A stretch of DNA of 64,000 nucleotides from an uncultured virus (IMG/VR IMGVR_UViG_2061766007_000136) (IMGVR_UViG_2061766007_000136), one strand, 5' to 3'; shown: positions 1,879 through 51,008, counted from the stretch's first letter. Made by a program: numbers and translations. The notes: generated by a model not told the origin, from the sequence alone.

Positions 1879-1895
1879 AAACAAAGGAGTTGAAA

Positions 1896-20203: not shown

Positions 20204-20224
20204 AGCTGTTTGTCGGAGGCAATA

Positions 20225-27600: not shown

Positions 27601-28240
27601 TTGTACCCAGATGTTCGTACTTATCGCGGATGTAAAGCATTCACGGGAATACGATGTCAAAACGAGGGCGTATGTCCAGTCCGTCCTCATGGACGGAATC
27701 GACTTTATCAACAAATGCTGGAGTTGTGACTATACTTCTCTTCTTCCCGACAAGTTATGGGCGCAGGGCATCAACCTTGGTTTTTCAGGCGGTGATTCCG
27801 TCATGTGCATCGAGTACGACATCGAAAGCATTTGCGAACGAATCAAGCTTTTGAAACTGATAATGAATTCCATTCCTATGCGTTTTGCTGTTGGAGCTGG
27901 TGAATGGACGTTGAGGTATCTTGACAAGGATATCAATTATCAGGACGGAAGCGCATTCTGGATGGCGCGTGAAATGATGAACTACTGCAAAGACCATAAT
28001 CGTGAGCTGTGCTTTTCGCCTTGTAACCACAGTAATTTGGAACAAGATACGGCTCATAAACTAGACTTAATTGACAAGTTGCATTCCACCAAGGAACTCG
28101 TTGACATGGCGGGATTCGTTCTCAGTGAAGAAGCATACAAGAAAGTGTGGGCAAACTGGAATGCATTCATAAAAATACTTACTTATCATGAAGGAATTGA
28201 AAATGTCTCTAGATACAATGAAAACAACTCTTGGCGATAG
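27578..28240 (+). CDS. SatD-like protein
   Basis: LIADVKHSR, GGDSV, RFAVGAG, DGSAFWMAR. Confidence 0.7.
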   Translation: MEPCRNYDCTQMFVLIADVKHSREYDVKTRAYVQSVLMDGIDFINKCWSCDYTSLLPDKLWAQGINLGFSGGDSVMCIEYDIESICERIKLLKLIMNSIPMRFAVGAGEWTLRYLDKDINYQDGSAFWMAREMMNYCKDHNRELCFSPCNHSNLEQDTAHKLDLIDKLHSTKELVDMAGFVLSEEAYKKVWANWNAFIKILTYHEGIENVSRYNENNSWR

Positions 28241-28985
28241 GATGAAACAGTACGAGGCTGAGTCGGAGAAGTACGGTTGCAAGGATATGAAGGCACCCGT
28301 GGTCATCCGTCTAGACGGAAGTTCGTTCCACACGTGGGTGAAGAAGGCTGGATGCGTCAAGCCGTTCGACAATCGGATGATTGACTGCATGAAGCTCACT
28401 GCGCTCGACCTGTGCAATGGCATTTCATCCTGCGTGATGGGGTTCGTCCAGTCGGACGAGATTTCCCTTGTCCTCCGCAACGACAAGTCGAGTGATTCTG
28501 AACCGTGGTTCGGCAACAGGATGCAGAAGCTCTGCTCCACGTCTGCTTCCATGTGGGGATGCCACTTCAACAGCCACACAAGGGAGATTTTCGGTGAGGA
28601 CGTGCCTTTCGCATACTGCGATTCCCGCGTCATCTACCTGCCCAACAGGGACGAAGTTTACAACTGCTTGCTGTGGAGGCAGAGGGACTGCATCAGGAAC
28701 TCGATTTCTGGTCAGGCTCAGGCTTACTTCTCCGCGAAGGAATTGAACAAGAAGAACAGCGACGTGATGCTGGCGATGCTCCGCGAGTCTGGTCAGGATT
28801 GGGAACTCCTTCCGACGTGCAAGAAGTATGGCTCGCTCATCCACAAGAAAACGACTGTCGGTGATTACAACGGGACTCCTTTCACAAGGGGGACGTTCTT
28901 CATCGACGATGAATTCGGGAAATTGACCCGCGAGATATTCGACGGGGCATATGATTTTGTAAAAGAGGAATTGAAGAAAATTTAA
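28203..28985 (+). CDS. thg1: tRNA-His guanylyltransferase (Thg1-like 3'-5' polymerase)
   Basis: RMKQYE, VIRLDGSSFH, QSDEISL, WFGNRMQK, DSR, WRQRDCIRNSI. Confidence 0.93.
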   Translation: MSLDTMKTTLGDRMKQYEAESEKYGCKDMKAPVVIRLDGSSFHTWVKKAGCVKPFDNRMIDCMKLTALDLCNGISSCVMGFVQSDEISLVLRNDKSSDSEPWFGNRMQKLCSTSASMWGCHFNSHTREIFGEDVPFAYCDSRVIYLPNRDEVYNCLLWRQRDCIRNSISGQAQAYFSAKELNKKNSDVMLAMLRESGQDWELLPTCKKYGSLIHKKTTVGDYNGTPFTRGTFFIDDEFGKLTREIFDGAYDFVKEELKKI

Positions 28986-32001: not shown

Positions 32002-32310
32002 ATGAAGAACAAGAAGAATACACGGCATATCCCGAACAACATCAAACTGTCACCGCAGGAGCCTCCGAAAGCGACTGAAAAGCAGGATGATGCCATTGAA
32101 AAAGGCAAGGCGTTGAACCTCATGTCGCTTGAAGAGCCTAACGATTCGGAAATCAATGAAGAGGGCGACTGCATCGGTCATTATGACGAGAATGCGCCTG
32201 AATGCGAGGATTGTGAAATACAGGTGTCATGCAAGGACATGACGGATAACTTGAAATCGATGATGGAAGAACTTACAAAGGACAATGGAGATGGCAAGAA
32301 AGAACGGTAA
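32002..32310 (+). CDS. small Cys-cluster protein
   Basis: C-x9-CxxC-x4-C. Confidence 0.7.
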   Translation: MKNKKNTRHIPNNIKLSPQEPPKATEKQDDAIEKGKALNLMSLEEPNDSEINEEGDCIGHYDENAPECEDCEIQVSCKDMTDNLKSMMEELTKDNGDGKKER

Positions 32311-32641
32311 TCCAATTATCATCGTGAGCATCAACGGCGGTGAGACCGATACGGCTACGGTCGTCAAGGAGAAGACGACGGTGGAACCGCCTCATAAGTG
32401 GAATGTCGTTATGCACAACGACGATTTCACCCCGATGGGGTTTGTTGTCGAAGTGCTCGTGAAGATATTCAAAAAGGACAGGGTTGAAGCAACCAAGCTG
32501 ATGTTGCACATCCACCACAATGGAAAGGGCATTGCAGGGACTTATTCAAAGAGCATTGCGGAAGAAAAGCTGACAAAGACACGCGACCTTGCCAATGCTG
32601 CGGGTTATAATGAATTCAAAGTGACAATGGAGCGAGCTTAA
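32285..32641 (+). CDS. clpS: ClpS N-degron adaptor
   Basis: WNVVMHNDDFTPMGFVVEVL, MLHIHHNGKG, IAEEK. Confidence 0.95.
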   Translation: MEMARKNGNPIIIVSINGGETDTATVVKEKTTVEPPHKWNVVMHNDDFTPMGFVVEVLVKIFKKDRVEATKLMLHIHHNGKGIAGTYSKSIAEEKLTKTRDLANAAGYNEFKVTMERA

Positions 32642-32945: not shown

Positions 32946-33161
32946 ATGACAGGCAAGACACGCAAGAAACGCGAGAAGATAGACTGGAAGAAGAATGTGG
33001 ACGATGCGACTGCGTGGATTGAGGAATGCAGGAAGCTCGGAATTACGCCCACCACCACGCAATTGCAGAACCACTTCGGGTGGACTCAAACCGTGGCGAG
33101 CAAAGTGAAGTCTTTTATAGGAATCATGAATTCAAAGGAGCAACGAAACGATGGCGAATAA
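32946..33161 (+). CDS. small basic protein, possible winged HTH
   Basis: [17 protein letters not shown] pattern. Confidence 0.55.
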
Positions 33162-35397
33162 TCACGAAATGGAAGAAATCAGACGGATTGTGAACAAGGT
33201 GCAGGACTTTGCGGAAAAGCACAAGTACGCTTATCTTGTCCCTGAGCAGATGCTTTACGTCCTGTTGAGCGACGACAAGTGCGTAAATCTCATCAAGAGC
33301 CTGACGACAGACCGTAGCAAGAACAAGGCGGTCGCTGATTTGAAAAAGGAAGTCTCCGAGTACATCGAGGAGAATGTGGAGAAAGCCGAGGACATTGGCG
33401 GTATTTCAATGACGAAATCCTATCAGAAGCTACTGAACGATGCGGTTACGCAGGCAAGCCTCCGTTCCATCGAACCCGACAGTTTCTGCATATTCGTCAT
33501 GCTCTTCAATGACAAGGAACAGGCTTCGGCGTATTTCCTGTCACAGCACGGCATCTTCGAAGAAGATGTGTTGGAATACATCCGCAACTATCGTGACGGC
33601 GGTGGCAATGCCGATGGCAACGGTAGCACTGAGAACCTTGCCAAATACTCCGTTAATCTGACGCAGATGGCTCGTGACGGCAAAATCGACCCGCTTATTG
33701 GACGTGAGAAGGAAATAGAACGCATCGCCGATATTCTGGCGAAGAAACGCGGTAGCTGTCCCGTTCTATGTGGTGAAGCTGGAACTGGCAAAAGTGCTGT
33801 GGTTGAAGGACTTGCGTTGAAAATCGCCAATGATGAAGTGCCGAAGTCGCTTCTTGGAAAGAGCGTTTACGCCCTTGATTTGGCGAGCATGGTGGCTGGC
33901 ACGAAGTTCCGTGGCGAATTCGAAGACCGTCTTGAAAAGACCATCAAGGAAGTCGCTGGCAACGATAATGTCATCCTGTTCATTGATGAACTCCATACGA
34001 TTGTCGGGGCAGGCGGTTCAGAGGGCGCGATGGATGCGTCCAATATCCTGAAACCATACTTGTCCCGTGGTCAGGTCAGAATCATCGGAGCTACGACTTA
34101 CGATGAATACAAGAATAAGATTGAGAAAGACAAGGCGTTGTGCCGTCGTTTCAAAAAGATTGACATTATGGAACCGTCCAAGGCGGAGACACTGGAAATC
34201 CTGCGTGGACTGCGCGAAAAGTACGAGGAATTCCACGGTGTCAAGTTCAGCGATGAAATCCTGCAATCCGCAGTTGATTTGAGCGCACGTTACGTCATCG
34301 GCAAGTTCTTCCCCGACAAAGCGATTGATGTCATCGACGAAGTTGGTGCGAAGTACCATTCTGGTAATAAAAAGGGAACTGAAGCGACTCTGAAAGATGT
34401 CGAGGAAGTCATCTGCTCTATGGCGAATCTTCCGAAACTCTCCGTTGAGACTGATGAAAAACAACAGCTCAAGACCCTCGGCGACCGCATCAAGACCAAT
34501 CTGTACGGTCAGGATGAAATCGTTGACCAGATTGTGAAACAAGTCAAGATGGCAAAAGCTGGACTGTCCAATCAGGGAAAACCGCTTGCTGTGTACATGC
34601 TTGCTGGTCCCACGGGCGTTGGCAAGACGGAACTTGCGAGAACTCTTGCAAAAGAACTCAATATCGGGTTCACGAAACTTGACATGTCAGAATACCAAGA
34701 GGAATACTCCGTGTCCAAACTCATCGGTTCTGCGGCAGGTTATGTCGGCTACGAGCAGTCTGGCGCGTTGACTGAACCGCTTATCAAACAACCTCATCAA
34801 GTGCTGTTGCTCGATGAAATCGAAAAAGCGAACAAGTCCGTGTACGATTTGCTCCTGCAAGTCTTCGATGACGGTCGCCTGACCGACAATCACGGTCGTG
34901 AAGCAAGCTTCAAGAATGCAATCATCCTCATGACGACGAACGTAGGTTATGCTGGTGCCACCAACATGTCCAATGCGCTCGGATTCACCAAGACTGAAGC
35001 GGATGATGCACAGCGGACTCAAAAGGCGATTGAGGATGCGTACAAGAAGAAGTTCAGCCCCGAATTCCGTAACCGTCTGTCTGGTGTCTGCTACTTCCAT
35101 AATCTTGATGACAAGGTAATGGGGATGATTGTGGACAAGAACATCCGTTTCTTGAACGATTCTCTTGCTGACAAGAATGTGACCGTCTCCCTGACAGACA
35201 ATGCAAAAGCGTGGATTGTCAAGAAAGCCGTGGCTGAAAAGGCTGGTGGTCGTCCTGTCGAGCGTCTTGTCGATTCCGAAATCAAGATGAAGATTGTCGA
35301 TGAACTCCTTGAAGGCGACATTGCCGAAAAGGGCGGTTCTATCTCCGTGGACGAAAACAACGACGAACTCTCCATCTCCTATAATGTGAACGAATAA
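33151..35397 (+). CDS. clpA: ClpA-like AAA+ chaperone
   Basis: [50 protein letters not shown] loop, FSPEFRNRL; no ClpB middle domain; next to clpS. Confidence 0.93.
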
Positions 35398-36731: not shown

Positions 36732-37079
36732 ATGATAAAGTCAAATGATGGAATATACGTGGTCGTCAATGGACAAGAGTACAAGCTGGAATATGTCACT
36801 CCATTTGACGACCTGACCAAATGCGGTCAATGCGATTTCATGAAACAAGGAAGATGCACAGCCACGAAAAACTGTCTGAAAATAGAAGTGGAATTCCCAG
36901 ACTCTTTCTGGAAGAGAGTCATGTCTCTTACAGTCAAAAAGGATTCTACTTATTCAAAGCCAGCTTACTGCTACAATGATTCATTTAAAAAGGAAGTGGT
37001 GATTACGCAGGACAGCACTCTGCTGGAAAACGAAACTGTTACGACAGACAGGTTTGTAGGGGAATTCAACTGTGAATAA
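36732..37079 (+). CDS. hypothetical Cys-containing protein
   Basis: AAGGAG SD; CGQC. Confidence 0.7.
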   Translation: MIKSNDGIYVVVNGQEYKLEYVTPFDDLTKCGQCDFMKQGRCTATKNCLKIEVEFPDSFWKRVMSLTVKKDSTYSKPAYCYNDSFKKEVVITQDSTLLENETVTTDRFVGEFNCE

Positions 37080-37128
37080 ACTTGACAACACAACAATATG
37101 AGACATATTATCTAATAAGGAAAAAACT

Positions 37129-37962
37129 ATGGGTACAACTAAAAAGACAACAGCATCGGTGTATGGAAAGAGGATTTTCAAAATCGAAGTCACTGCCATC
37201 TACAATGAGGACATGGAAGCGGAGCAAATTGCCGACGAGCTTTCCGAAGGATTGTTCAACAGCCTGAAGAAGAGCGGGAAGAGACTGGTCGTGCTAAATG
37301 TTGATTCCGTGAAAGTCCCTTCTAAGCCAGACGACGTGGCAATGGGGATAATCAGGGAATTGTCCCGCCAGAAGCAGGAGTCGATGAGTATGCAGGAAAC
37401 TGAAGAAGGCTCGAAGTATGTCGTCGTGGAAAAGAAGGAGGAAGAACCCCAGAAGACTGAAGTAAAGCAGGAAGTTCCAGAAAAAGAAATGCCTAGACAA
37501 GAAGAGCCTAAGCAAGAGGAACCGAAAAAGGAAGAGCTTCCGAAAGAAATAGAAAAAGAGATTCCTGAAAAGGAAAAACCGAAGAAGGAAAAGCCAAAGA
37601 AGGAACCGAAAAAAGAAATTCCAAAGAAAGAGGAACCTCCGAAAAAGGAAGAACCGAAGAAAAAGCCTGCGAAAAAGACAGCTCCGAAGAAAAAACTTCC
37701 TGAACCAGAACAAGATGTCAAGAAGACTGAACCTGTGAAGGAAACTGCATCAGAAGAAGCAAAGCAGGAAACAATTTCATCGTTTCCTAAAACGAAAATA
37801 CATCCAATTGGAATACCAAAAAAACCCAATGCCTCGGCTGATACAAGACCGACTTTGAATGATATTTTCGGATTCAGGAAAACACAAGAAACAAAGGAAA
37901 CTCCAAAGCTAAATGCTGTTGCCAAGAAAGGCAAGGCGGTGAAAAATGAGAAAAGAGCTTGA
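37129..37962 (+). CDS. protein with long E/K/P-rich low-complexity region
   Basis: Repeated EEPK/KEKPK units ~37430-37700. Confidence 0.75.
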   Translation: MGTTKKTTASVYGKRIFKIEVTAIYNEDMEAEQIADELSEGLFNSLKKSGKRLVVLNVDSVKVPSKPDDVAMGIIRELSRQKQESMSMQETEEGSKYVVVEKKEEEPQKTEVKQEVPEKEMPRQEEPKQEEPKKEELPKEIEKEIPEKEKPKKEKPKKEPKKEIPKKEEPPKKEEPKKKPAKKTAPKKKLPEPEQDVKKTEPVKETASEEAKQETISSFPKTKIHPIGIPKKPNASADTRPTLNDIFGFRKTQETKETPKLNAVAKKGKAVKNEKRA

Positions 37963-38872
37963 GGAACAATTATACGCGATTGACCCCGTGTTCTTCAGAC
38001 AGAAGGACTTAGACATGACGCAGACGTGCATGTGCTGGGGCATCGAATGCGGTGACGGGTGGTACGAGCCAATCAAGAAGCTGGTTGAGAAAACAGCCGT
38101 CTTGAACAGGGTGCTCGCGCCGTTGAACCTGTGCATCAACGCAAGCCAGATAAAGTCAAAATTCGCGGAATTCCGTTGCTACTGGGTGCCGAATGTCTTG
38201 AATGATAAGGTTGATTTTCCGTTATCCGACGAGCAGATGGCGATTATGGACACGGTTCATCATCTTATGGATGATGCGGTGAGCGGTTGCGAGGATGAAT
38301 GCAACAGGACATGCGAATTGTGCGGGAAGAACGACACATTCAAAGACGAAATATCCGTCTGCGGGTCGTGGCTAACCGTCAAATGCCTTGAATGTGCGCA
38401 GAAACCGCAACGTGAGGCTGGAAAGATTACGAACTTCAGGGAAGGATTCATGTTCCTGTCGCCTTTCGCTAGGGAAACTGTCGTGGTCAACGATGTCAGA
38501 TTTCCGACTGTCATCGGGGCGCATTATGGTACGATGTATCCGAACTATGAACAGATGTTCTCGGATTTGGCGAATCCTTCCGATGTGCAGGCGGTCGCCA
38601 TGAACCTCGGACTCTGTAAGAATGACGACAGGGCGGTTGCCAACATGAAAAAGGTGCTTCTGGCTCGTTACTCCGAGTCGAAGAACGGCGAAAACAGGGC
38701 TAAGGCTGGTCTTTTGAGTACGAAGGGGCTTGAAATCATCCAGTTGAACCGTACCCATGAGAATGTCTGGGGCGCATGCTGTTGCAAGGAATGCGAAGGG
38801 AAGGGGCAGAATATTTACGGAAAGATGCTCATGGACATAAGGGATGCTTTTTTGAGAGGGGAGATACCATAG
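37946..38872 (+). CDS. fusion: Zn-finger phage domain + degenerate NADAR domain
   Basis: GIECGDGWY, CELC...CLEC, then FLSPF, FPTV, LLSTKG, VWG, GQNIYGKMLMDIR. Confidence 0.7.
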   Translation: MRKELEEQLYAIDPVFFRQKDLDMTQTCMCWGIECGDGWYEPIKKLVEKTAVLNRVLAPLNLCINASQIKSKFAEFRCYWVPNVLNDKVDFPLSDEQMAIMDTVHHLMDDAVSGCEDECNRTCELCGKNDTFKDEISVCGSWLTVKCLECAQKPQREAGKITNFREGFMFLSPFARETVVVNDVRFPTVIGAHYGTMYPNYEQMFSDLANPSDVQAVAMNLGLCKNDDRAVANMKKVLLARYSESKNGENRAKAGLLSTKGLEIIQLNRTHENVWGACCCKECEGKGQNIYGKMLMDIRDAFLRGEIP

Positions 38873-38874
38873 AA

Positions 38875-39387
38875 ATGATTAGGACTGATGACAAGCATGT
38901 TTTCTTCTACAAGGAATGGCCGTCCAATTTCAGGAAGACCAGTTTTTCCTACGATTACAACGACGAGGGGAATCCGCATCGCTTCTTTTGCACTGAACAG
39001 GCGTTCATGTACTGTAAAGCAAGATTCTTCAATGATTTGAAGACTGCTGAGAAAATCCTGAAGGCGACTGCTCCTTTGGAGGCGAAGATACTTGGCAGGC
39101 AAGTCAGTAACTACGTTGACGAGGAATGGGACAAGGTGCGCTACGACTACATGAAACAGGTGAATCTTGAACGGTTTTCTCAGGACGAATGGCTGAAAAA
39201 CAAAATCCTAGACCCATTGTATGACGGAAAGGCGTTTGTCGAGGCATCCCCGATTGACAAGATATGGGGAATCGGAATCCCGCTGGACAACGATGCGATT
39301 TTCGATGAACGAAACTGGAATGGCAAGAATCTTTTAGGAAAGGCGTTGACAGAAGTAAGAAACGAAATAAAGGAACGGATGAAATGA
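38875..39387 (+). CDS. NADAR (YbiA-like) domain protein
   Basis: SNF, TEQAFMYCKA, AKILGR, VEASPIDKIWGIG, GKNLLGKAL. Confidence 0.92.
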   Translation: MIRTDDKHVFFYKEWPSNFRKTSFSYDYNDEGNPHRFFCTEQAFMYCKARFFNDLKTAEKILKATAPLEAKILGRQVSNYVDEEWDKVRYDYMKQVNLERFSQDEWLKNKILDPLYDGKAFVEASPIDKIWGIGIPLDNDAIFDERNWNGKNLLGKALTEVRNEIKERMK

Positions 39388-39725
39388 TAATCAGGACTGG
39401 ATATGTCAGCAATTCAAGCACGTCGTCTTTCACGTTGGTTGGAATCGTGATTCACAGGGATGACATTGAAGAAGAATTTGGCAAGGAAATGGATTATGAC
39501 GACTTGTACCAGTTGTTTAACCATTCTTCTCTCGAAGTTGAAACTGGAATACAGGAATATGACGAAGACGACATTATCATCGGGCGTGACTTCCGCACAA
39601 TGAAGGACGACCAGACCTTGAAGGACTTCAAGCTGGAAGTGCTGAAAATCCTTGTGGACAAAGGATGGAAACCGAATGACTACAAGCGTCTAGAAATCGC
39701 CTGCGACGAAGGATACAGGTCATAG
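39384..39725 (+). CDS. SNSSSS-leader family protein 1
   Basis: MIIRTGYVSNSSTSSF. Confidence 0.85.
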   Translation: MIIRTGYVSNSSTSSFTLVGIVIHRDDIEEEFGKEMDYDDLYQLFNHSSLEVETGIQEYDEDDIIIGRDFRTMKDDQTLKDFKLEVLKILVDKGWKPNDYKRLEIACDEGYRS

Positions 39726-39729
39726 CAAG

Positions 39730-40242
39730 ATGAAGATACGTGCAGGATATGTTAGCAACAGCAGTTCAAGCTCTTTCTGTGTTGTCTTGAAGGATGACAT
39801 GACAAACATGGTGAAAATCACAAAAGAGCAGGAGGAACTGCTTTATTCGTATGGCTTCCGCTACATCAACGAATCTTGGAGAGGCGCGTTGACACAAGGT
39901 TCTCCACTTCATGACAGTACGGACGGATTCGACGAAAAGGAGCCGACATGCATGTATTTCGACGTGGTTTGCAACGAGCAGGATGTCGAGGATTTCCTGT
40001 TCGAGAACAAAATCCCGTTTGTCGAATCGGAGGAATACGATACGCGCACGGTGCATTACGACGGCATCCACGACTGGTATGACACGTATGAGAACGCGGG
40101 TGTGCGATTCTCGATATACGGGCTTCACAATCCGTTTGAAGATGAGTTGTACATGAAGTTGGCGATGAAATCCAGACCGTTCTACAGAACTAGGATTTCT
40201 GACGGGAAAGACATTACGGACGAGATGTTCAAAAAGGATTAA
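39730..40242 (+). CDS. SNSSSS-leader family protein 2
   Basis: MKIRAGYVSNSSSSSF. Confidence 0.85.
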   Translation: MKIRAGYVSNSSSSSFCVVLKDDMTNMVKITKEQEELLYSYGFRYINESWRGALTQGSPLHDSTDGFDEKEPTCMYFDVVCNEQDVEDFLFENKIPFVESEEYDTRTVHYDGIHDWYDTYENAGVRFSIYGLHNPFEDELYMKLAMKSRPFYRTRISDGKDITDEMFKKD

Positions 40243-40254
40243 ATGGAGTAAATC

Positions 40255-40635
40255 ATGAAAATCAGGACTGATTACGTGAGCAATTCAAGTTCTTCATCCT
40301 ATATTGTCATCGGGAAGGTCATCGGGAACATGTTCAATGACAATCTTGAGCTTGACGACGACAAGACCTACATCACGGAAGGTGCGGAACTTTGCGACGG
40401 TCAGGATATCATCACCGTGAACAAGTCCATCTACAAGTGGTTCAAGGAAAATCAGTTCAATGCCGATGTCCATTGCATTGATGGCGATGTCATCGAAGTC
40501 ATCTGGGACATTTCCGATGCTTCTGGCGATGAATTTCCAGAGCATTTCGAGAAGGGATGCAGGATTTGGACGTTCAGAAAAGACTACCATTCCACACATA
40601 CAGTCAAGGAAGCGAAAGACCGCTACAACTATTGA
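40255..40635 (+). CDS. SNSSSS-leader family protein 3
   Basis: MKIRTDYVSNSSSSSY. Confidence 0.85.
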   Translation: MKIRTDYVSNSSSSSYIVIGKVIGNMFNDNLELDDDKTYITEGAELCDGQDIITVNKSIYKWFKENQFNADVHCIDGDVIEVIWDISDASGDEFPEHFEKGCRIWTFRKDYHSTHTVKEAKDRYNY

Positions 40636-40675
40636 TAATGCCATGATTTCATTCAACCCGATAGGAGGCTCGAAG

Positions 40676-41089
40676 ATGAAATTGAAGAAGGCGAAGGAAT
40701 TGTATCCAGACTACGATTTCAACGCATGGTTTGGACCATACGACTATTCCCCGATATACAAGTCCTTCGGGACAGTTGTTCGCAAGGACGACATTGGCGA
40801 GTATCAGGGCGACACGCAGGTATTGCTGTATGACTCGGAGACGGACAAGTATGGATACTTGATGTTCGGTTGGGGAAGCTGTTCCATGTGCGACAGATTG
40901 CAGGGATGCCAGAGCTACAAGGACGTAGATGACCTCATCCAGTATCTCTATTCGACAATCCGCTGGTTTGATGATGATGCCGAAGGATACAGGTTCTTCA
41001 CGACGCACAAATGGCATTTCGACTACGCCCACAGCCCTGAATTCGTGTCGTTCTGCACGGAATTTTTCAAGAAGAGATGCGGGAAATGA
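40676..41089 (+). CDS. hypothetical phage protein with GSCSxCD motif
   Basis: AGGAGG SD; EYQGD, FGWGSCSMCD. Confidence 0.75.
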   Translation: MKLKKAKELYPDYDFNAWFGPYDYSPIYKSFGTVVRKDDIGEYQGDTQVLLYDSETDKYGYLMFGWGSCSMCDRLQGCQSYKDVDDLIQYLYSTIRWFDDDAEGYRFFTTHKWHFDYAHSPEFVSFCTEFFKKRCGK

Positions 41090-41373
41090 AAAAGACCGTT
41101 GACTTGACGGAAAACCACGACTACATAAACGAGTCGTATGAGCAGTTGATGAGGGAGCGCAGGTGGACGGTCTTCAGGACGAAGAAGCATTATGTCCAAC
41201 TGACTTTCCAGATACACTGGCGGTTGGGCAAGTTCAAATGGTTCAGATTCAAGGAAACCGTATTCAGGTACTATGCGATTAGCAGATTTTACGAACTTGT
41301 ACTTTTGAACTACATGTACACGCTTGGCGTGCATTTCGGGACATACGACCCTTCATGCCAGAGCGGTGGATGA
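41086..41373 (+). CDS. hypothetical protein
   Basis: ATGA-coupled ORF. Confidence 0.6.
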   Translation: MKKTVDLTENHDYINESYEQLMRERRWTVFRTKKHYVQLTFQIHWRLGKFKWFRFKETVFRYYAISRFYELVLLNYMYTLGVHFGTYDPSCQSGG

Positions 41374-41392
41374 TTTTATAAAGGAGTTGAAA

Positions 41393-41896
41393 ATGAAAAG
41401 AAGAGAAGGATATGTGAGCAATTCAAGCTCATCTTCATACGTGGTTGTTCCGAGGGAAGTCGTGGACGACTGTTCTCATGACAAGTGGACTGACGATTCG
41501 GTGATACTGACCATGTTCATCGGCGACCGTTGCGGGGAGCAATGGAATGGTGAGAAATGGGACGGATTTTTTGATGGCGGTGAAAAGGAATTCGGCTGGC
41601 AGACAGAGGAATACCATGACTTCGAGTCCAAATGGAATTGGCTGGTATTGCAGGCGTTTTATGACGGCGACGAATACATCACGCAGATAAACGACTTCCT
41701 GCACAGAATCGACCCGTCCTTTGAAATCGACTGGGGAAAAGTCGAGAAACTGACAGAAGGCGAAGGCGGATATGCGTTCATCGACCATCAGAGCGTCGAT
41801 GCGAAAAGCACGTTCGAGGAGATTTCTCCAATCGGAATAGCGGAATGGTTGCTAAATGGAAAATGCTACATCAACAACGGAAACGACAATGGCTGA
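41393..41896 (+). CDS. SNSSSS-leader family protein 4
   Basis: MKRREGYVSNSSSSSY; AAGGAG SD. Confidence 0.85.
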   Translation: MKRREGYVSNSSSSSYVVVPREVVDDCSHDKWTDDSVILTMFIGDRCGEQWNGEKWDGFFDGGEKEFGWQTEEYHDFESKWNWLVLQAFYDGDEYITQINDFLHRIDPSFEIDWGKVEKLTEGEGGYAFIDHQSVDAKSTFEEISPIGIAEWLLNGKCYINNGNDNG

Positions 41897-42569
41897 GGAA
41901 AAACAGGAATACAGCGGAGATTTTGTCAACACTCTGAAAGCCACGGAGCAGTATGAACGCGAGGAGCAGGAATACTACGATTATCTTAGAAACCATCCCC
42001 ATATGAAGGAATGCGCAAAGGCGATACTGTATCTCCGAGACAATCTTCCGAAATTCGAAAAATGGGACGTGATGAACATCCTTTACAACTACGAGATGGA
42101 AGGAGACACATTTTTGTCCGATTTTTCGACCATCATGGATTCCAATGAATTCATGCGTTTGCCAAAAGCATTGACATCCATGCTGTCCAGCATCGAGTAC
42201 AACATCGTCGATGACGGATATCTGCATCTCTACGAGATACAGGTGGTGAATGATATTAAGAGCCTGTGCAAGGAAAAAACCTTAAAGAACAAAGCGTCGT
42301 TCCACTATGTCCTTTCAGCCATCGAACCGACTTCGGCTAAAAACAATTACGGGAAGAGATGGCTTTCCTGCCATGAATTCATGTTCGTCAATCCAAAGTA
42401 CAAATGCTCAAAGGACACATGGTTCAAGACGGTCGATAATTTCGTCGAATTCCTCAAAATCCTCGGCGACACAAAGAACTACACCAACAATGGTTATGTC
42501 AAGGAAAGCGTGCTCAAGAAGTATTTCAAGAATCTTGTGAAATCCAACAAAATTGGCATAGGTGGTTAA
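41889..42569 (+). CDS. hypothetical protein
   Basis: Coupled ORF. Confidence 0.75.
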   Translation: MAEEKQEYSGDFVNTLKATEQYEREEQEYYDYLRNHPHMKECAKAILYLRDNLPKFEKWDVMNILYNYEMEGDTFLSDFSTIMDSNEFMRLPKALTSMLSSIEYNIVDDGYLHLYEIQVVNDIKSLCKEKTLKNKASFHYVLSAIEPTSAKNNYGKRWLSCHEFMFVNPKYKCSKDTWFKTVDNFVEFLKILGDTKNYTNNGYVKESVLKKYFKNLVKSNKIGIGG

Positions 42570-43012
42570 TGGACTATAAAATCTGTTTAAATTGCCCTCA
42601 TGCCCATGAAAACGAACTGGTTTTCTATGGCAAGAACATCGTATCATGCGATTGCGCGGTCAGATTCTACAAACTCGGAGATGAAGCCGACCAAGCAGGG
42701 AATGTGCTGGCAATATCGCAACACACGGTGCGTTGCAATAACCTTGTACGCAACGAGTTGTTCAATACGGTAGAGCTGACCGACAGAAAATGCGATTTCT
42801 ATACCGAGCACATGATGCACGACTTGAACCAGAACTGGTTTGACAAGATTCTTGGCAAGCTGATGACATGCTATGTTGGAACGAAAATCGTATTGAGGAA
42901 GAAGTACAATGCCCAGATGATTATGCCGATATTCATTCTAGGTCTGTTCATTGGAATGATTGTCCTGAATACCATCGTTGGAATAATGCATCTATTGTCG
43001 ATATTTAAGTAA
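42569..43012 (+). CDS. hypothetical protein with C-terminal TM helix
   Basis: N-terminal CLNC; hydrophobic C-terminus. Confidence 0.7.
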   Translation: MDYKICLNCPHAHENELVFYGKNIVSCDCAVRFYKLGDEADQAGNVLAISQHTVRCNNLVRNELFNTVELTDRKCDFYTEHMMHDLNQNWFDKILGKLMTCYVGTKIVLRKKYNAQMIMPIFILGLFIGMIVLNTIVGIMHLLSIFK

Positions 43013-43028
43013 AAGGAGGATATGAAAC

Positions 43029-43535
43029 ATGATTGTGATAGGATATCAGGGAATCGGAAAATCCACGATGGCAAAAGGCGACATGTCGGTTATCGACTTG
43101 GAATCGTCATGCTACACGTGGGGAAGCAGAAAGTTGGAAGACTGGTACAAGGCTTACGCCGACACCGCCCTTCACCTGTCAAGTCAGGGATACACGGTGT
43201 TCACGGCGACGCACGCGCCTGTCAGGGAATGGATTGGCTTGCACAACACGACATTCAATATCGGAGTCCACATCGACGGTATGTACGAACAGCAGATTAT
43301 GGCTGTCGTGCCAGATGTCAGGCTGAAGGACGAATGGATTGCAAAACTTTGGAAACGGTATGAAGACACCAAGTTGATGAAAGATTACTGCGCTTGGATG
43401 AATGCCGACGACCGATACATCGACAACATCAATGAAATCTTGGCTGATGCGAAAAAATATTCTTGGAAGACGGTCATCATCCCGTCGATGGAATACAATC
43501 TGAAAGAACTGGTTGAAAAGGCGAGGAATGAATAA
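43029..43535 (+). CDS. P-loop kinase-like protein
   Basis: IVIGYQGIGKST, IDLESS. Confidence 0.8.
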   Translation: MIVIGYQGIGKSTMAKGDMSVIDLESSCYTWGSRKLEDWYKAYADTALHLSSQGYTVFTATHAPVREWIGLHNTTFNIGVHIDGMYEQQIMAVVPDVRLKDEWIAKLWKRYEDTKLMKDYCAWMNADDRYIDNINEILADAKKYSWKTVIIPSMEYNLKELVEKARNE

Positions 43536-44038
43536 TGAAATCCAGAATCGGGTTTGTCAGCAATTCATCGTCAAGCTCGTTCATAGTGCCTGTTGACATC
43601 GAGAAACAGGGAATACGCGGTATATCCTGCATTAAGTTGCCGAGGGAGATATGGAGGGCGATTGAAAGGAACCATGTCGAATGGAACGGGAAGAAATTCG
43701 ATTTGTCCTCATCGCACGAATGGTGGTTGACCGAGATGGTGTCGGACTGCACTGAAGCATGGTCTGAAATCTCCGACATACCGAATGCCATTGCGTATCT
43801 GGAAGGAAACGACATGCCATACGGATGCTACGACGAAGAAGGAGAAAAGGCGTACATCAAATTCAAAAAGGACGACCAGAATTACTGGATACTGCTGTCG
43901 GATTTCATAGACGAAGAAGGGGACAGCGACATACCTGAATCCGTTGAATTGAGAGAAAAGGCGCGTCGTATCTTCAACACAAAGGCGTTGAACAAGACGC
44001 AGAAGCTCAATGCACTGATGCACATATTTGATTTTTAA
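43535..44038 (+). CDS. SNSSSS-leader family protein 5
   Basis: MKSRIGFVSNSSSSSF. Confidence 0.85.
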   Translation: MKSRIGFVSNSSSSSFIVPVDIEKQGIRGISCIKLPREIWRAIERNHVEWNGKKFDLSSSHEWWLTEMVSDCTEAWSEISDIPNAIAYLEGNDMPYGCYDEEGEKAYIKFKKDDQNYWILLSDFIDEEGDSDIPESVELREKARRIFNTKALNKTQKLNALMHIFDF

Positions 44039-44131
44039 GGAATTTGCAATTTGATTCATAATTTTCAGAAAAAGTATCCATTAACGCATTACCATCCGAA
44101 TTTGAGGAATGAAAATATTTTTCAGATTGAT

Positions 44132-44159
44132 TTGCATTCTGGAAAATCCAATGTATATT
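44132..44159 (+). promoter_or_regulatory. Recurrent promoter TTGCAT-N16-TATATT
   Basis: Matches consensus; shares ATGTATATTAATTGGT.TTGACA with the 44745 promoter region. Confidence 0.7.
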
Positions 44160-44247
44160 AATTGGTATTGACAGAAAAATTATGGAATGAAAAAGGCAAC
44201 CCGTTTCTCTGCTACTGGTGGACTCTATCGACCAAAACAAGGAAAAA

Positions 44248-44703
44248 ATGAGCGATTGCAACAAAATCAATTATTACAAGGAGAAGATGCAGGGTTTCAT
44301 CAAAATGTTCGACGACGAGGCGAACAGACTCCTTGACCAGAAACGAAAACAGTTTGAACTTGAAGAAGACACGCTTGGATATGTGAGACTTGACAAGATA
44401 AGGGAGGACATGCTAGCTTCCTGTGTGCGGATTAGCCCAAGGTTGAACCGCAAGAACCCCGATTTCAAGGAAGCCGACGAGGAGTTTATGCTGTACGTCA
44501 GTTCAGCCATATGCTTCGTCAAGGAAGTGTCCAGTATCGAATGGTTCGAAATAAAATACTCCTTGGCTTACGAAAGTTTCCTCCGTGAATGTATTGGGCA
44601 TGTTTTTCCGTATGAGATAAATGTGCTTTACTACGGGATAAGAGGCTTTCTTAATTGCGTCAGGACTCTCCTCATAAAGGAAGGTCTGACAAAAATAGGA
44701 TGA
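44248..44703 (+). CDS. hypothetical protein
   Basis: AAGGA SD. Confidence 0.7.
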   Translation: MSDCNKINYYKEKMQGFIKMFDDEANRLLDQKRKQFELEEDTLGYVRLDKIREDMLASCVRISPRLNRKNPDFKEADEEFMLYVSSAICFVKEVSSIEWFEIKYSLAYESFLRECIGHVFPYEINVLYYGIRGFLNCVRTLLIKEGLTKIG

Positions 44704-44744
44704 GCCGTCAGATTCCCTTTCGAAAAAATAATTTTCGGTCTGAC

Positions 44745-44772
44745 TTGCAATCCAGCGTCCATGATGTATATT
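44745..44772 (+). promoter_or_regulatory. Recurrent promoter TTGCAA-N16-TATATT
   Basis: Matches consensus. Confidence 0.7.
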
Positions 44773-44816
44773 AATTGGTGTTGACAAAAAAATCAAAAGC
44801 ACAAAGGAGTTCAAAA

Positions 44817-45650
44817 ATGAAAAGCCTGTCCGACAACAAGACCTATCTTGAAAAGATGCGCAACGCCTTCGCTGACAAGGCGTGGTTTATGAAGACCATT
44901 CCGACCGACGTGAAGACGGTCATAGACTTCGGCTCTGCCGACAATTCTTTCATACGGTACATGAAGGAATCCCGTCCCGACCTGCGCTACATCGGCATCG
45001 ACAACAACCCATACTTCCTAAAACTGTCCAAGGAGCAGGGGCAGGAATGCTACGAATCCTTGACGCAGATGAAAGAAAACATGGACTACGACAAGGGCAC
45101 GACGTTGCTTGTCCTGAACAGCGTTCTCCATGAAGTCTATTCCTACGGCTATGCTGAGAATTTCTGGGACGAAATCCTCGCGCTGTCCCCAAGATACGTC
45201 GTCGTCCGCGACATGTACGCTAGCAACTGCGACAGCTTCGGTTCCATAGAATTCAGGGCGATGGAGTCCATCATCGAGAAGTCCTTCTCCATGAACGAGC
45301 ACTACAAGGACTTCATCGAGAAGTGGGGGCGGGTGCGCGACGGCTACACTGCAATCCACTTCCTTCTCAAATACTTCTACGATGAAAACTGGACACGGGA
45401 AGTGGCGGAAAACTACATCCCGTTCACGTACCGAGAACTGTACAGGAAAATCCGAGAAGTCGGCTACAATGTCACCCACAGCGAATTCTACCTGCTTCCG
45501 TTTCTGAAGAACAAATGGCTCAAGGATTTCAAATGCGAAGGCACGTCGTTCAGCGAAAGCGAGAAGGCGAATGCGGTCATGCGCGGATTCATCACAAGAA
45601 TCCTGACACACATGAAAATTTCTCTTGTAAAAGAAGAAAATTTTGATTGA
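44817..45650 (+). CDS. class I SAM-dependent methyltransferase
   Basis: VIDFGSAD, YIGID, NSVLHEVYSY, VVVRD. Confidence 0.8.
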   Translation: MKSLSDNKTYLEKMRNAFADKAWFMKTIPTDVKTVIDFGSADNSFIRYMKESRPDLRYIGIDNNPYFLKLSKEQGQECYESLTQMKENMDYDKGTTLLVLNSVLHEVYSYGYAENFWDEILALSPRYVVVRDMYASNCDSFGSIEFRAMESIIEKSFSMNEHYKDFIEKWGRVRDGYTAIHFLLKYFYDENWTREVAENYIPFTYRELYRKIREVGYNVTHSEFYLLPFLKNKWLKDFKCEGTSFSESEKANAVMRGFITRILTHMKISLVKEENFD

Positions 45651-45654
45651 CAGC

Positions 45655-45682
45655 TTGACAAAAAAGAAAAACAAGTCATATT
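45655..45682 (+). promoter_or_regulatory. Recurrent promoter TTGACA-N16-CATATT upstream of the ncRNA block
   Basis: Matches consensus; no SD-led ORF follows for ~700 nt. Confidence 0.7.
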
Positions 45683-45735
45683 AATAGTGTAAAACAAAAA
45701 CAACGGCTCTTTAAAAACAGTAACAGTACGATTTC

Positions 45736-45801
45736 AAAGACGATTACAGCAACCCACCAGCAAAAGAATTGTAATCTTTAGAAGCTAGAAACATCGTCTT
45801 G
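45736..45801 (+). ncRNA. ACAGCAA-motif hairpin RNA, copy 1
   Basis: AAGACGAT/ATCGTCTT stem, ACAGCAACC, internal AAAGA-ATTGTAA-TCTTT hairpin. Confidence 0.55.
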
Positions 45802-45808
45802 TTCAAGT

Positions 45809-45879
45809 AAAGACCCAAACAGCAACCTCACTTGATAATCCGCACCAAATCGCAGATACCTATCGAAAATTGGGTCTTG
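45809..45879 (+). ncRNA. ACAGCAA-motif hairpin RNA, copy 2
   Basis: AAGACCCAA/TTGGGTCTT stem, ACAGCAACC; compensatory changes versus copy 1. Confidence 0.55.
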
Positions 45880-45894
45880 ACATTTAAAAAAGAT

Positions 45895-46163
45895 TTCCCT
45901 CCATATCCGAAAACAAGGGGAGGGAATATGAGACCGCCCACACTTGCCCTTCATTACAAGAGCCATCTACGGATGACTTGGAAGGCAGTGAGAAACATGG
46001 GTGCGTGGCGAATCCTAGGAAAGTAACCACGGGGTGTTGGTCGTTCACTTCGGCAACAACGACCAGCTAGCCAGTGCTAGAAGCTGGCTCGGAGACATTA
46101 TCGCAGAAATGGCTTTTTAAATCATTCAGACATGCAAAAACGCATGAGCCGAAGGATGTCTCT
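45895..46163 (+). ncRNA. candidate multi-helix structured RNA
   Basis: About six helices, including C(UACG)G and C(UUCG)G loops. Confidence 0.5.
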
Positions 46164-46199
46164 TAAAATCACGCGACACATGGTTGCCACTCTGCGTCC

Positions 46200-46282
46200 C
46201 TCCCAGTGGTGGAATTGGCATACACGACGCACAGGCTTGCGTCCCTAGAAATAGGTTGAAGGTTCGAATCCTTCCTGGAGCT
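46200..46282 (+). pseudogene. degenerate type II (Leu/Ser-like) tRNA
   Basis: TGGTGGAATTGGCATACAC D-arm, GAAGG-TTCGAAT-CCTTC T-arm, long variable arm; aberrant anticodon loop, imperfect acceptor stem, no CCA. Confidence 0.65.
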
Positions 46283-46290
46283 TCTTCTTT

Positions 46291-46390
46291 CCCGATACTG
46301 AACTCATCATGCAAATCATTGTTTTAGATTACCTCCCTCTCCTCCCCTAAAAATAAAACAGCATGGTGATTCAGCATCGGGCATTTTTTT
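46291..46390 (+). other. long hairpin with C-rich loop followed by T-tract
   Basis: CCCGATACTGAACTCATCATGC pairs with GCATGGTGATTCAGCATCGGG. Confidence 0.55.
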
Positions 46391-46399
46391 AAAACGACG

Positions 46400-46993
46400 A
46401 TGGACGGAAAAGCATACGCAAACAGGAAGAAGATTGAAGACAGACCAGAAGGAGACTTCTACGCCACGCCACGAAGTCTGATGTGGGTGGCTGAAAGCCT
46501 CTTCAAGGATGTCTTCTGGATTTCCATGCCAATCCTAGACCCCTGCTGTGGAAACGGGGTGATGGGGCAGGAGTTGTCGAAGATGGGTTTTCGCGTTGAT
46601 GAAAACGACCTCTATAAAAGGGACGGGGTTGATTATCTCCAAAATGACTGGAACCAGCGTCAAGTCGTCATGAACCCTCCGTTTTCGCAATGGGATGCCT
46701 TCGTGGAAAAGGCGAAATCCCATGCGAGCAAGGTCATGGCGATTGGAAGGCTGAACTACCTTTCCACCCAGTCCAGATACCAGTCGGATATTTGGAAGCA
46801 TCTGAAGTCCGTCAACGTCTTCACGCGGTATGTGGACTACCAGACACCTGAAAGGTACGACGGATGCTTCTGCGTCGGGGCGATGGCGACTGGGTGGTTC
46901 GTATGGGACATGTTTTACGACGGATGCCCGATGCTTTCGTTTCTGGACGTGCAGAAATACGCCACGTTAGGCAACTTTAAAAAGAAGAAATAA
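46400..46993 (+). CDS. DNA adenine methyltransferase (short NPPF type)
   Basis: DFYATP, ILDPCCGNG, MNPPF. Confidence 0.88.
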   Translation: MDGKAYANRKKIEDRPEGDFYATPRSLMWVAESLFKDVFWISMPILDPCCGNGVMGQELSKMGFRVDENDLYKRDGVDYLQNDWNQRQVVMNPPFSQWDAFVEKAKSHASKVMAIGRLNYLSTQSRYQSDIWKHLKSVNVFTRYVDYQTPERYDGCFCVGAMATGWFVWDMFYDGCPMLSFLDVQKYATLGNFKKKK

Positions 46994-47038
46994 TAAAATA
47001 CTTATAATAGGCTTTATTATCTGATAAAAAACTTAAAT

Positions 47039-49952: not shown

Positions 49953-51008
49953 ATGAGTTTCAACGAGATTCTAATCAAGAACACGGTTTTCAAGGAGCGC
50001 ATCACCAATGTCGCTGGTGTCGCTGTCGTACCAGACTACACCGCACCGCAGGGCACGTTGCTTGAGCGGTTGCACGGCAATCCGAACATCCATGAGAAGG
50101 CGTTCGGCGAAGACGGACGGTACTCGTCCTTCAATTTCACCCGCGACGCTTTCAACAACGGTACGTGGAATGACGAGACCATCAAGGCTCGCGGGCTGTT
50201 CATCGACAACAAGAGCAACCGAGTCGTGGCTCGCGGGTTCGAGAAGTTCTTTGGCTACAAGGAGCGTCAGTTCAACACCGATGAATTCCTGAAGCAGAAT
50301 TTGGTCTATCCCGTCACGGCGTACACCAAGTACAATGGATTCCTCGGCATTCTCGGCTACGGCGACGAGGGGCTTCTGTTCTGCTCCAAGTCCACCATCG
50401 ACGGCGAGTTCGCGGAATACTTCAAGACCATCTTCAAGGATGGTGGCTACGACGAGGAGAAGTTGCTCAAGTACATGCGTGAGAACAACGTCGGATTAGT
50501 GTTCGAGGTCATCGACCCCGTGAACGACCCGCACATCGTCGAGTACGACAAGAGCGAAATCATCCTGCTCGACGTAATCTCCTTGCAGGAGAAGTGGAAG
50601 GACTTGCCCTACGACGAGCTGGTTGCTTTCGGCAAGGACTTCGGCTTCAAGGTCAAGGAGAAGTTCCGCGAATTCAATGACTGGGAGACCCTGCACGAGT
50701 TCCTGAACCAAGTCGCTGGCGACACCAAAACCCGAATCGAAGGCTACGTCATGGTGGACGCACAGGGCTACCAATTCAAGCTCAAGGGAGCGTGGTACCG
50801 CAAGTGGAAGGACTTGCGCACGTTCAAGCAACAGATTGGCAACGGTCATGGAATCAAGAAGTTCTCGTCCGTCCAGTCCCCCTTGAAGATTGCGTTCATA
50901 GGCTGGGCGGTCAAGAAGGGGAAGGACTACTGCGCGGAGCGGAGCATCATCCAGTTGCGCAACGAGTTTGAGAAGGAGCATGTCTTCACGGAGACAAAGG
51001 AGGACTGA
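49953..51008 (+). CDS. RNA ligase (T4 Rnl1-like)
   Basis: ARGLF, ARGFEKFF, KYNG motif I, FEVIDP, EGYV motif IV, FKLK motif V. Confidence 0.88.
   Translation: MSFNEILIKNTVFKERITNVAGVAVVPDYTAPQGTLLERLHGNPNIHEKAFGEDGRYSSFNFTRDAFNNGTWNDETIKARGLFIDNKSNRVVARGFEKFFGYKERQFNTDEFLKQNLVYPVTAYTKYNGFLGILGYGDEGLLFCSKSTIDGEFAEYFKTIFKDGGYDEEKLLKYMRENNVGLVFEVIDPVNDPHIVEYDKSEIILLDVISLQEKWKDLPYDELVAFGKDFGFKVKEKFREFNDWETLHEFLNQVAGDTKTRIEGYVMVDAQGYQFKLKGAWYRKWKDLRTFKQQIGNGHGIKKFSSVQSPLKIAFIGWAVKKGKDYCAERSIIQLRNEFEKEHVFTETKED

Follow-up and report, generated by a model that had tools for sequence, protein, structure and literature searches.

The window analysed here is a 64-kb stretch of DNA from an uncultured virus (IMG/VR IMGVR_UViG_2061766007_000136), and the subject of this work is a set of five genes between 39384 and 44038 whose otherwise dissimilar products begin with nearly the same 16 residues. 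All five lie on the + strand inside 4.7 kb and have in common the start M-x-x-R-x-[GD]-[YF]-V-S-N-S-S-[ST]-S-S-[FY], here termed the tag, while the part from residue 17 onward is termed the cargo. The N-termini of the proteins encoded at 39384, 39730, 40255, 41393 and 43535 (tagged proteins 1–5) are, in order, MIIRTGYVSNSSTSSF, MKIRAGYVSNSSSSSF, MKIRTDYVSNSSSSSY, MKRREGYVSNSSSSSY and MKSRIGFVSNSSSSSF. All five have Arg4, Asn10-Ser11-Ser12 and Ser15, with an aromatic side chain at position 16, Val8 lies seven codons past the start codon in each, and Asp occurs at position 6 in tagged protein 3 only. A six-frame regular-expression scan found no further copy in the window, a hidden Markov model (HMM) of the leader gave the five copies 35.8–44.1 bits and no other window frame more than 9.3 bits, and the degenerate DNA pattern GTNWSNAAYWSNWSNWSNWSNWSNTWY, which encodes V-S-N-S-S-S-S-S-[F/Y], matched 5 times compared with a mean of 0.03 and a maximum of 1 in 100 shuffles.

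Only 27–36 of the 48 leader nucleotides are common between window copies, AGY and TCN serine codons are both used, and among 452 related genes all six serine codons occur at every serine position. Because the nucleotides diverge and the serine codons are mixed, selection acts on the peptide and not on DNA or RNA. The leader is basic (isoelectric point, pI, 8.3–11.0) and is joined to acidic cargo, with pI values of 4.17–4.73 in the five window proteins. The five cargo parts cannot be aligned with one another (best pairwise BLASTP E-value 0.15), the five proteins have no match in Pfam or NCBIfam, and a PDB sequence search with a profile of the five gave nothing significant (best E 1.1). In PHROGs, phrog_7397 matches two of the five over the tag only, at residues 1–30 of tagged protein 2 and residues 1–21 of the other. 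A preliminary description of this DNA had reported the five open reading frames (ORFs) with a 16-residue leader, its conservation at the protein level and the acidic, unalignable remainder, and each of these observations was borne out. Megablast of 37000–47000 and tblastn of two window proteins against GenBank phages gave no match, in searches whose low-complexity filter masks the tag, and IMG/VR has no copy of an exact 60-mer taken from the window. Whole or in parts, 39384–44038 is found in Logan contigs from DNA runs of 12 studies, with labels of bovine or other animal gut metagenomes; two of these runs contain every sampled word and may be the source.

AlphaFold2 models were made for tagged protein 2 (26 aligned sequences) and tagged protein 1 (65 aligned sequences), and both are small alpha/beta domains. 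The model of tagged protein 2 has a predicted local distance difference test score (pLDDT) of 83.1, with residues 1–11 below 50 and a first strand at 14–21; that of tagged protein 1 has a pLDDT of 82.7, with residues 1–15 as low-confidence coil and a first strand at 16–24. The tag is thus modelled as a flexible N-terminal tail ahead of the first strand and not as a core strand or active-site loop. Fold searches with the two models yielded nothing significant (Foldseek against PDB, best E 0.13 and 0.32; BFVD, best E 0.028; VIA-wide, best Z 5.3), a result that does not prove the folds to be new.

The tag family and its cargo

A scan of IMG/VR for [GD][YF]VSNSS[ST]S gave 512 stretches, from which the 60 loci with an additional gene for a relative of tagged protein 1 (113 aa) were analysed. 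This first, tag-seeded set is seeded on one cargo class; among the loci analysed in this work as a whole, many contigs are fragments and some loci are near-duplicates. The position of the tag was counted in the 60 loci and the window for ORFs of at least 45 aa with [VIL]SNSS[STAGCQ][STAGCQP] 3–13 codons after the start codon, a filter that itself fixes S9, N10, S11 and S12. The 271 tagged ORFs so counted, of which 255 are unique, are 50–279 aa long (median 127) and occur at 1–12 copies per 16-kb locus. In 270 of the 271 the start codon lies exactly seven codons before Val8, and 270 of the 271 are on the array strand. The positions that are free of the filter and near-invariant are K2 (251/254), R4 (252/254), S15 (252/254) and F16 (245/254). 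F or Y occupies position 7 in all but three of 254 tags (one each with H, L and M), and Asp occupies position 6 in 31 of the 254, with yet another residue there in 6 more. A looser scan that left positions 9–15 free gave 396 tags, in which N10, S11 and S12 were each kept in 395, the lone exception resembling a chance match, and the residue at position 9 was Ser 387 times, Ala 8 times and Cys once. Thr is found at position 9 in one database protein (P0038, an FVTNSSS variant), and one locus (L124, about 10022–12000) has four FVANSSSSSF copies beside one gene for a radical S-adenosylmethionine (SAM) enzyme. Since Ala9 and Thr9 variants occur, Ser is not required at position 9, unlike N10, S11 and S12.

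The family is very large. With 1.84 billion representatives as the target, a profile built on residues 1–40 of 101 tagged proteins matched 27,637 clusters (50% identity) at E≤0.001 and 540 at the stricter E≤1e-10, and in almost all of the best 150 matches the alignment begins at residue 1. A word-index search with residues 1–40 gave only 4 matches from 6 candidates, probably owing to the low complexity of the tag, and is not useful for a family count. Ten representative proteins (P0030–P0039) have two tags each; in the seven inspected by sequence the second tag is internal and is still preceded by Met, so that each looks like a pair of adjacent tagged genes run together. The cause could be a lost stop, an error of assembly or, in some phages, recoding of a stop codon. 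There is no entry in Pfam, NCBIfam or PDB that covers the tag, and PHROGs, in which phrog_7397 (‘unknown function’) is one cargo class of tagged proteins (full-length match to L004:6996-7595, E 3e-14), does not recognise it as a separate module.

A constant tag is carried by genuinely different cargo. The complete tagged ORFs of at least 60 aa from the first locus set and a second one seeded on the enzyme described below comprise 452 unique proteins, which clustering by cargo divides into 147 clusters, 110 with a single member. When the 16 largest clusters were compared by hhalign, one of 120 pairs exceeded 90% probability, one more reached 56% and the remaining 118 were below 50%. Cargo parts have a median pI of 4.5, with 89% below 5.5, and Cys-x-x-Cys motifs resembling metal sites are present in some cargo classes and not in others. 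Pfam recognises the cargo in only one of 145 cluster representatives, as DUF4325 (L102:1593-2366); a STAS-like DUF4325 domain is also found in two untagged proteins of the window. The cargo of tagged protein 1 belongs to the largest class (‘F-C/L-I-Y-G ... DDETG..FK’), with 66 members in the clustered set, and relatives of this protein were found in 49 of the 60 tag-seeded loci. Tagged protein 2 falls in cluster 7 (11 members) and has 25 full-length homologues at 51–94% identity, tagged protein 3 has two near-identical database relatives (95–98% identity), and tagged protein 4 falls in cluster 6, whose 16 members include proteins of L017, L031 and L043. The nearest Atlas neighbours of tagged protein 5 are viral hypothetical proteins, at a score of 0.88 that is to be taken as a lead only.

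Within a genome the tag is uniform despite unrelated cargo, with Asp6-Tyr7 in L017, L031, L043 and L045, Asp6-Phe7 in L042 and Gln5-Ser6...Ala9 in L124. Identity within loci at positions 5, 6 and 7 was above that in all of 300 label shuffles (0.964 at position 6, compared with a shuffle maximum of 0.858). This uniformity is consistent with co-evolution with one genome-specific partner, and shared ancestry of the copies could also give rise to it.

Linkage of the tag to a radical SAM enzyme

When the untagged ORFs of the 60 tag-seeded loci were clustered, one family stood out: it is encoded no more than 8 kb from the tag in 33 loci, compared with 9 for the next untagged family (one further cluster, of 12 loci, consisted of tagged ORFs called from an upstream start). 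Its members are divergent radical SAM/SPASM-like proteins of ∼350 aa that correspond to phrog_7293 (‘unknown function’, E 2e-92), and PHROGs draws no link between this family and phrog_7397. The copy at L004:3755-4789 matches the Pfam families Radical_SAM at 30.9 bits (cut-off 29.5) and SPASM at 23.5 bits (cut-off 21.5). In 29 enzyme sequences the cysteine triad C54, C62 and C65 is invariant, as are C249, C274, C292 and C345, and these four C-terminal cysteines suggest one auxiliary cluster of the twitch-like kind. By sequence, the best match of the enzyme profile to a solved structure is the peptide maturase SkfB, a weak match at E 0.001, and against named NCBIfam radical SAM families the metagenome copies give E 1e-4 or weaker and the copy of phage KP27 2.8e-6 at best. 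The Atlas neighbours of the enzyme are 83–100% viral, with the exception of one bacterial cluster at rank 17. The enzyme appears to belong to the radical SAM branch that modifies peptides and proteins, and it is typically encoded just upstream of a tagged gene on the same strand.

The linkage was also found in the reverse direction. In 80 loci seeded on the enzyme alone, of which 65 are on contigs outside the first set and a few are near-duplicates (for example L106-L109), at least one tagged ORF of the strict form lies within 8 kb of the enzyme in 73, giving 309 ORFs that are all on the enzyme's strand. Inclusion of the Ala9 copies of L124 and of L086, where a tag directly past the enzyme gene is cut by the contig end, brings the count to 75 of 80. 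For the nearest tagged gene, the distance to the enzyme gene is at most 50 bp (overlaps included) in 28 of the 73 loci, at most 300 bp in 42 and at most 1 kb in 54, and this gene lies downstream of the enzyme in 59. Fusions of enzyme and tag were not seen, as none of 145 enzyme-bearing frames in the analysed loci has the tag. No third family recurs as a partner (best 8/80 in the enzyme-seeded loci), and no leader peptidase, exporter or RRE/PqqD protein recurs with the pair in the same 80 loci. In a third sample, JGI metagenome contigs chosen through the family of the 170-aa tagged protein 2 and the tag, the enzyme is encoded by 10 of the 14 loci that reach 8 kb and by 8 of the 10 with 4–8 kb (18/24 of at least 4 kb); an earlier metagenome scan with one protein had found no relative. 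A whole-contig search of 20 first-set contigs with no enzyme within 8 kb located it in 6, which include all 3 complete genomes with terminal repeats, while 12 of the remaining contigs are rated 4–54% complete. These three complete genomes (L017, L031 and L045; 414–434 kb) encode one enzyme each and 8–10 tag copies each.

The enzyme is also present in 172–173 GenBank phage records under labels that range from ‘hypothetical’ to ‘radical SAM superfamily maturase’. Carriers include Klebsiella phages KP15, KP27, PMBT1 and Miro, Escherichia phages RB43, RB16 and Lw1, Cronobacter phage GAP161 and Citrobacter phage Margaery. Among these cultured phages, PMBT1 encodes the tagged proteins gp238 and gp243, both of which start with MKIRSGFVSNSSSSSF, and KP27 encodes the enzyme and two tagged proteins, with neither tagged gene within 7 kb of the enzyme gene. 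In these two phages the tagged genes are far from the enzyme gene, so the linkage is at the level of the genome and not of an operon. Between the two tagged genes of PMBT1 (L150) lies a gene for a 738-aa protein (68764-70980). Near the start of this protein is VFVCDVSGSMY, a D-x-S-x-S motif that on inspection of the sequence resembles the metal site of a von Willebrand A domain. In two contigs (L066/L067, G004:C1:10024-10542 and 11482-12078; and L157) the radical SAM gene is in two pieces ∼0.9 kb apart, and in Klebsiella phage Kpn35c1 the same gene is reported to be split beside a GIY-YIG homing endonuclease (PMC9960720). The split genes suggest repeated invasion by mobile endonucleases or introns. 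A full-text literature search, with subscription journals and preprint supplements outside its reach, found no description of the tag or of its pairing with the enzyme.

Other genes of the window

The tagged genes are interspersed with untagged ones and are preceded by NADAR genes (Table 1). The preliminary description had listed two NADAR domains, a GSCSxCD protein, a P-loop kinase and a SAM methyltransferase as neighbours; the full NADAR gene, the GSCSxCD gene and the P-loop gene are present, whereas the second NADAR match is below its cut-off and the methyltransferase match is weak. As general partners of the tag they were rejected, NADAR on its recurrence in 6 of the 60 tag-seeded loci and the GSCSxCD, P-loop and methyltransferase-like genes on their recurrence in none. 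The neighbourhood enrichment that had been proposed as a check was hence found for radical SAM, and not for NADAR, P-loop proteins or any peptidase. The untagged array genes between 40673 and 43535 have no relative at E<1e-5 in these 60 loci, and their Pfam and PHROGs matches are absent or weak.

Table 1 Positions of the tagged genes and of other genes in the 64-kb window
Feature	Position	Strand	Remarks
Tagged protein 1	39384-39725	+	113 aa; tag residues 1-16 at 39384-39431
Tagged protein 2	39730-40242	+	170 aa; start 4 nt past the stop of protein 1
Tagged protein 3	40255-40635	+	126 aa; cargo a singleton in the clustering
Tagged protein 4	41393-41896	+	167 aa; ATG at 41393, with Shine-Dalgarno AAGGAG before it; in-frame TTG upstream at 41324
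Tagged protein 5	43535-44038	+	167 aa; cargo a singleton; ATG overlaps the stop of the P-loop gene 43029-43535
NADAR gene, full	38776-39387	+	136 bits
NADAR gene, partial	37946-38872	+	29.2 bits, under the 35.1 cut-off
GWGSCSMCD protein	40673-41089	+	untagged, inside the array
Untagged array genes	41077-41373, 41856-42569, 42569-43012	+	context
Walker-A-like protein (GYQGIGKST)	43029-43535	+	untagged, inside the array
Methyltransferase-like gene	44775-45650		Methyltransf_12 E 0.005, below cut-off
LemA-family protein and its 260-aa neighbour	19685-20992		LemA 100 bits; PHROGs: virion structural protein
ClpS	32285-32641		94.6 bits
ClpP	1890-2495		202 bits, canonical
Two-AAA ClpA/ClpB-like unfoldase	33151-35397		748 aa; phrog_4871, E 1e-225
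Second, longer ClpP-like protein	13245-14144		55.9 bits
STAS-like DUF4325 proteins	25537-25857, 26340-26945		untagged
tRNA/RNA genes	2492-3865, 28188-28985, 49953-51008, 62324-63694		arginyl-tRNA synthetase, Thg1-type tRNA-His guanylyltransferase, T4-type RNA ligase 1, HD-domain CCA-adding or poly(A)-polymerase-like enzyme
1505-aa ORF	8716-13233		unmatched in Pfam and PHROGs at the applied thresholds

Four IMG/VR contigs (L017, L031, L043 and L045) have other genes in common with the window; the enzyme is present in all four, and every tag copy on them is of the Asp6-Tyr7 form. L043 gives the strongest matches to the window NADAR gene and to 19685–20992, and it encodes the enzyme directly upstream of its homologues of the genes in the latter interval. 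The LemA-family protein and its 260-aa neighbour are syntenic with L043:4220-5638, where they lie between the radical SAM gene on one side and the NADAR gene and tag array on the other. In the window this block is ∼18 kb upstream of the array and is not preceded by a radical SAM gene. The window also encodes Clp components, and its tRNA and RNA genes are in keeping with a very large phage that has tRNA repair functions of its own.

Proposed maturation of the tag and its alternatives

We propose that the 16 residues serve as a portable tag at the protein N-terminus, and that the five genes are part of a very large, phage-borne set in which this tag is combined with unrelated acidic domains. A single, mostly viral radical SAM enzyme (phrog_7293) would bind the exposed tail in an extended form and modify it chemically, within or beside the invariant Asn10-Ser11-Ser12, since nothing else in these proteins is conserved, and the maturation of many different small proteins would in this way depend on one enzyme. 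Action of the enzyme on the tag is inferred from genomic linkage only, and we consider it fairly probable that tag and enzyme form such a one-enzyme, many-substrate maturation system. As no peptidase recurs, the tag probably stays on the mature protein. The preliminary description had envisaged a constant leader with variable cargo that serves one partner or modification, and the flexible tail and the enzyme linkage support this, with the difference that the neighbours listed at the time are not conserved partners. By analogy, candidate chemistries are oxidation of Ser to an aldehyde, a cross-link from the aromatic residue to a C-beta over [FY]7-V8-[S/A]9, and an ether link. The anaerobic sulfatase-maturating enzyme (anSME), which converts Ser to an aldehyde, and the triceptides, with their aromatic-to-C-beta cross-links, are precedents for the first two. 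The tagged proteins are probably early, host-directed effectors, a role that is a speculation from the acidity and diversity of the cargo and its placement among early or replication-type genes. More tentatively, it is possible, though we would not expect it, that in phages of many lineages, from 175-kb T4-like coliphages to those of >400 kb, one viral radical SAM enzyme turns the Asn-Ser-Ser tag into a cross-linked or reactive handle on fast-turning-over acidic effectors of host takeover or anti-defence.

Several observations weigh against the proposed maturation. The Pfam scores of the enzyme are barely above the cut-offs, so that its family assignment is based on borderline scores together with conserved cysteines, of which the invariant C-terminal ones number only four, and the enzyme copy of L043, the locus that most strongly matches window genes, has no Pfam match at E≤0.01. 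Adjacency is not universal: five of the 80 enzyme loci have no tag within 8 kb, the PMBT1 enzyme is encoded ∼19 kb from the tagged genes, in one complete genome enzyme and tags are ∼56 kb apart on opposite strands, and two contigs rated 88% and 79% complete have a tagged gene and no enzyme. No leader peptidase or exporter accompanies the pair, unlike in classical clusters for peptides that are made by ribosomes and modified after translation (RiPPs), and the linkage itself could mirror shared regulation of early genes. The 64-kb window itself has no radical SAM gene, as assessed with the enzyme HMM on all ORFs of at least 50 aa (E≤10) and with Pfam and PHROGs on the larger ORFs. Because all four contigs that have other genes in common with the window carry the enzyme, we expect that the enzyme gene of this phage lies elsewhere in its genome, in the unsequenced remainder.

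The main alternative to enzymatic modification is that the tag is a docking or sorting peptide, a strand added to one shared non-enzymatic partner, for example for capsid loading and co-injection or for binding to a host machine, with the enzyme linked for other reasons. An exposed, strand-prone, basic tail on acidic cargo would suit such a role, any shared partner could account for the uniformity of the tag within genomes, and N-terminal capsid-targeting peptides exist in T4. We nevertheless think this unlikely, as no structural, portal or other family recurs beside the arrays (best 9/60 and 8/80), the recurring neighbours seem by sequence inspection to be genes of replication and nucleotide metabolism (clamp-loader-like, dUTPase-like and ThyX-like), the only conserved partner is an enzyme, and the near-invariance of N10-S11-S12 (395/396) across very different phages exceeds what a docking strand usually needs. 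Among the mechanisms offered in the preliminary description (modification, docking and packaging) it is modification that is favoured, by gene linkage only. The same near-invariance would also fit a tag in which the Asn10-Ser11 or a Ser-Ser bond cleaved or rearranged with no dedicated enzyme, through a succinimide or an N-to-O shift, to leave a new reactive N-terminus. Asn-Ser bonds are labile, Ser-Ser and Gly-Ser bonds self-cleave in pyruvoyl enzymes and inteins, and the window has tags and no enzyme. Such self-processing normally needs a surrounding fold, however, whereas these proteins have an unstructured tail and cargo of differing folds; there is no conserved His or other helper residue beside the Asn, and the enzyme linkage would be left unexplained. 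We regard it as quite improbable.

A further alternative, in which the five are simply paralogs that have diverged within one fold and the motif forms a core strand or a ligand-binding loop, is very improbable. Both models are small alpha/beta sandwiches whose first strand starts at or just before Phe16, and there are weak generic ferredoxin-like matches (Z about 5); against this, residues 1–11 or 1–15 are outside the fold in the two models, no fold match is significant, for 118 of 120 cluster pairs hhalign shows no relation between the cargo profiles, and only some cargo classes have Cys-x-x-Cys motifs. The fold searches, hhalign and both models thus gave no sign of ordinary paralogs of one characterised fold, the outcome that the preliminary description had set against its own proposal. 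The position of ClpS and ClpA-like genes 4–7 kb upstream of the array, with ClpP also in the window, raises the idea of an N-terminal degradation signal for the phage's own ClpS/ClpA/ClpP, which we find barely credible. ClpS reads an N-terminal F, Y, W or L, while the tag starts with Met-Lys or Met-Ile, and none of the other five complete genomes with tags (three huge phages, PMBT1 and KP27) has ClpS; as a general mechanism the ClpS N-degron was rejected on these two grounds. A glycyl-radical protein was likewise rejected. The glycyl-radical motif is R-V-x-G-[YF], and the corresponding activases have no SPASM domain. In the tag, position 6 is not always Gly and the Arg is two residues before it, not three, and the partner enzyme has a SPASM-type domain.

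The presence of the tag on at least 27,637 protein clusters places it among the larger unexplained regularities of phage proteomes. Its linkage to a single virus-specific radical SAM enzyme gives an enzyme–substrate hypothesis that is open to test, with both components present in the laboratory E. coli phages RB43, RB16 and Lw1. If the proposed maturation is correct, it would represent a new protein modification and a common handle by which hundreds of phage effector families that otherwise escape recognition could be found and studied at once, and the enzyme and tag might be a portable pair for protein engineering. If the Asn-Ser-Ser handle reading also holds, the tagged proteins would be the largest family of protein-sized products modified by radical SAM enzymes, and the handle a new post-translational modification.

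Several known systems resemble parts of this one. The radical SAM enzyme anSME, a member of the SPASM family, acts on whole proteins and is a precedent for modification of a Ser within a short motif close to the N-terminus, but the sulfatase motif C/S-x-P/A-x-R is absent from the tag. Triceptide, or three-residue cyclophane, systems act on aromatic-X-X3 motifs. The tag segment [F/Y, rarely H]7-V8-[S, rarely A/C]9 has this form, with a C-beta donor. A cross-link of this kind would leave the invariant N10-S11-S12 unexplained, and no significant similarity of the enzyme to the maturases of triceptide systems (PMC11499958) was found. The capsid-targeting sequence of T4 internal proteins is also a short N-terminal peptide on otherwise unrelated small proteins, in T4-like phages; however, the tag has no L/I-x-E protease site and its arrays lie among replication- and nucleotide-metabolism-like genes, not head genes.

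Further parallels are found among peptide maturation systems. In the radical SAM SPASM/twitch maturases, of which SkfB/SkfA is an example, the gene for an iron–sulfur enzyme with a cysteine-rich C-terminal auxiliary-cluster domain also lies beside, and usually just upstream of, genes that share an N-terminal recognition sequence. The tag system differs in being almost entirely viral, in that its substrates would be proteins of 50–279 aa with folded, unrelated domains rather than short peptides, and in that its conserved part is the likely site of chemistry and not a disposable leader, with no peptidase, exporter or RRE/PqqD protein. Classical RiPP precursors are short and lose their leader once the core has been modified, whereas the products here are 113–170 aa, confidently folded and without a conserved peptidase neighbour; the adjacency to a maturase that is typical of RiPP clusters is seen in other phages and not in the window. 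With the prochlorosins and their enzyme ProcM the tag system would have in common that one enzyme serves many substrates, which consist of a near-identical leader and a hypervariable remainder. ProcM, however, is a lanthionine synthetase and not a radical SAM enzyme, and its chemistry takes place in the variable core, whereas here it is the tag alone that is conserved.

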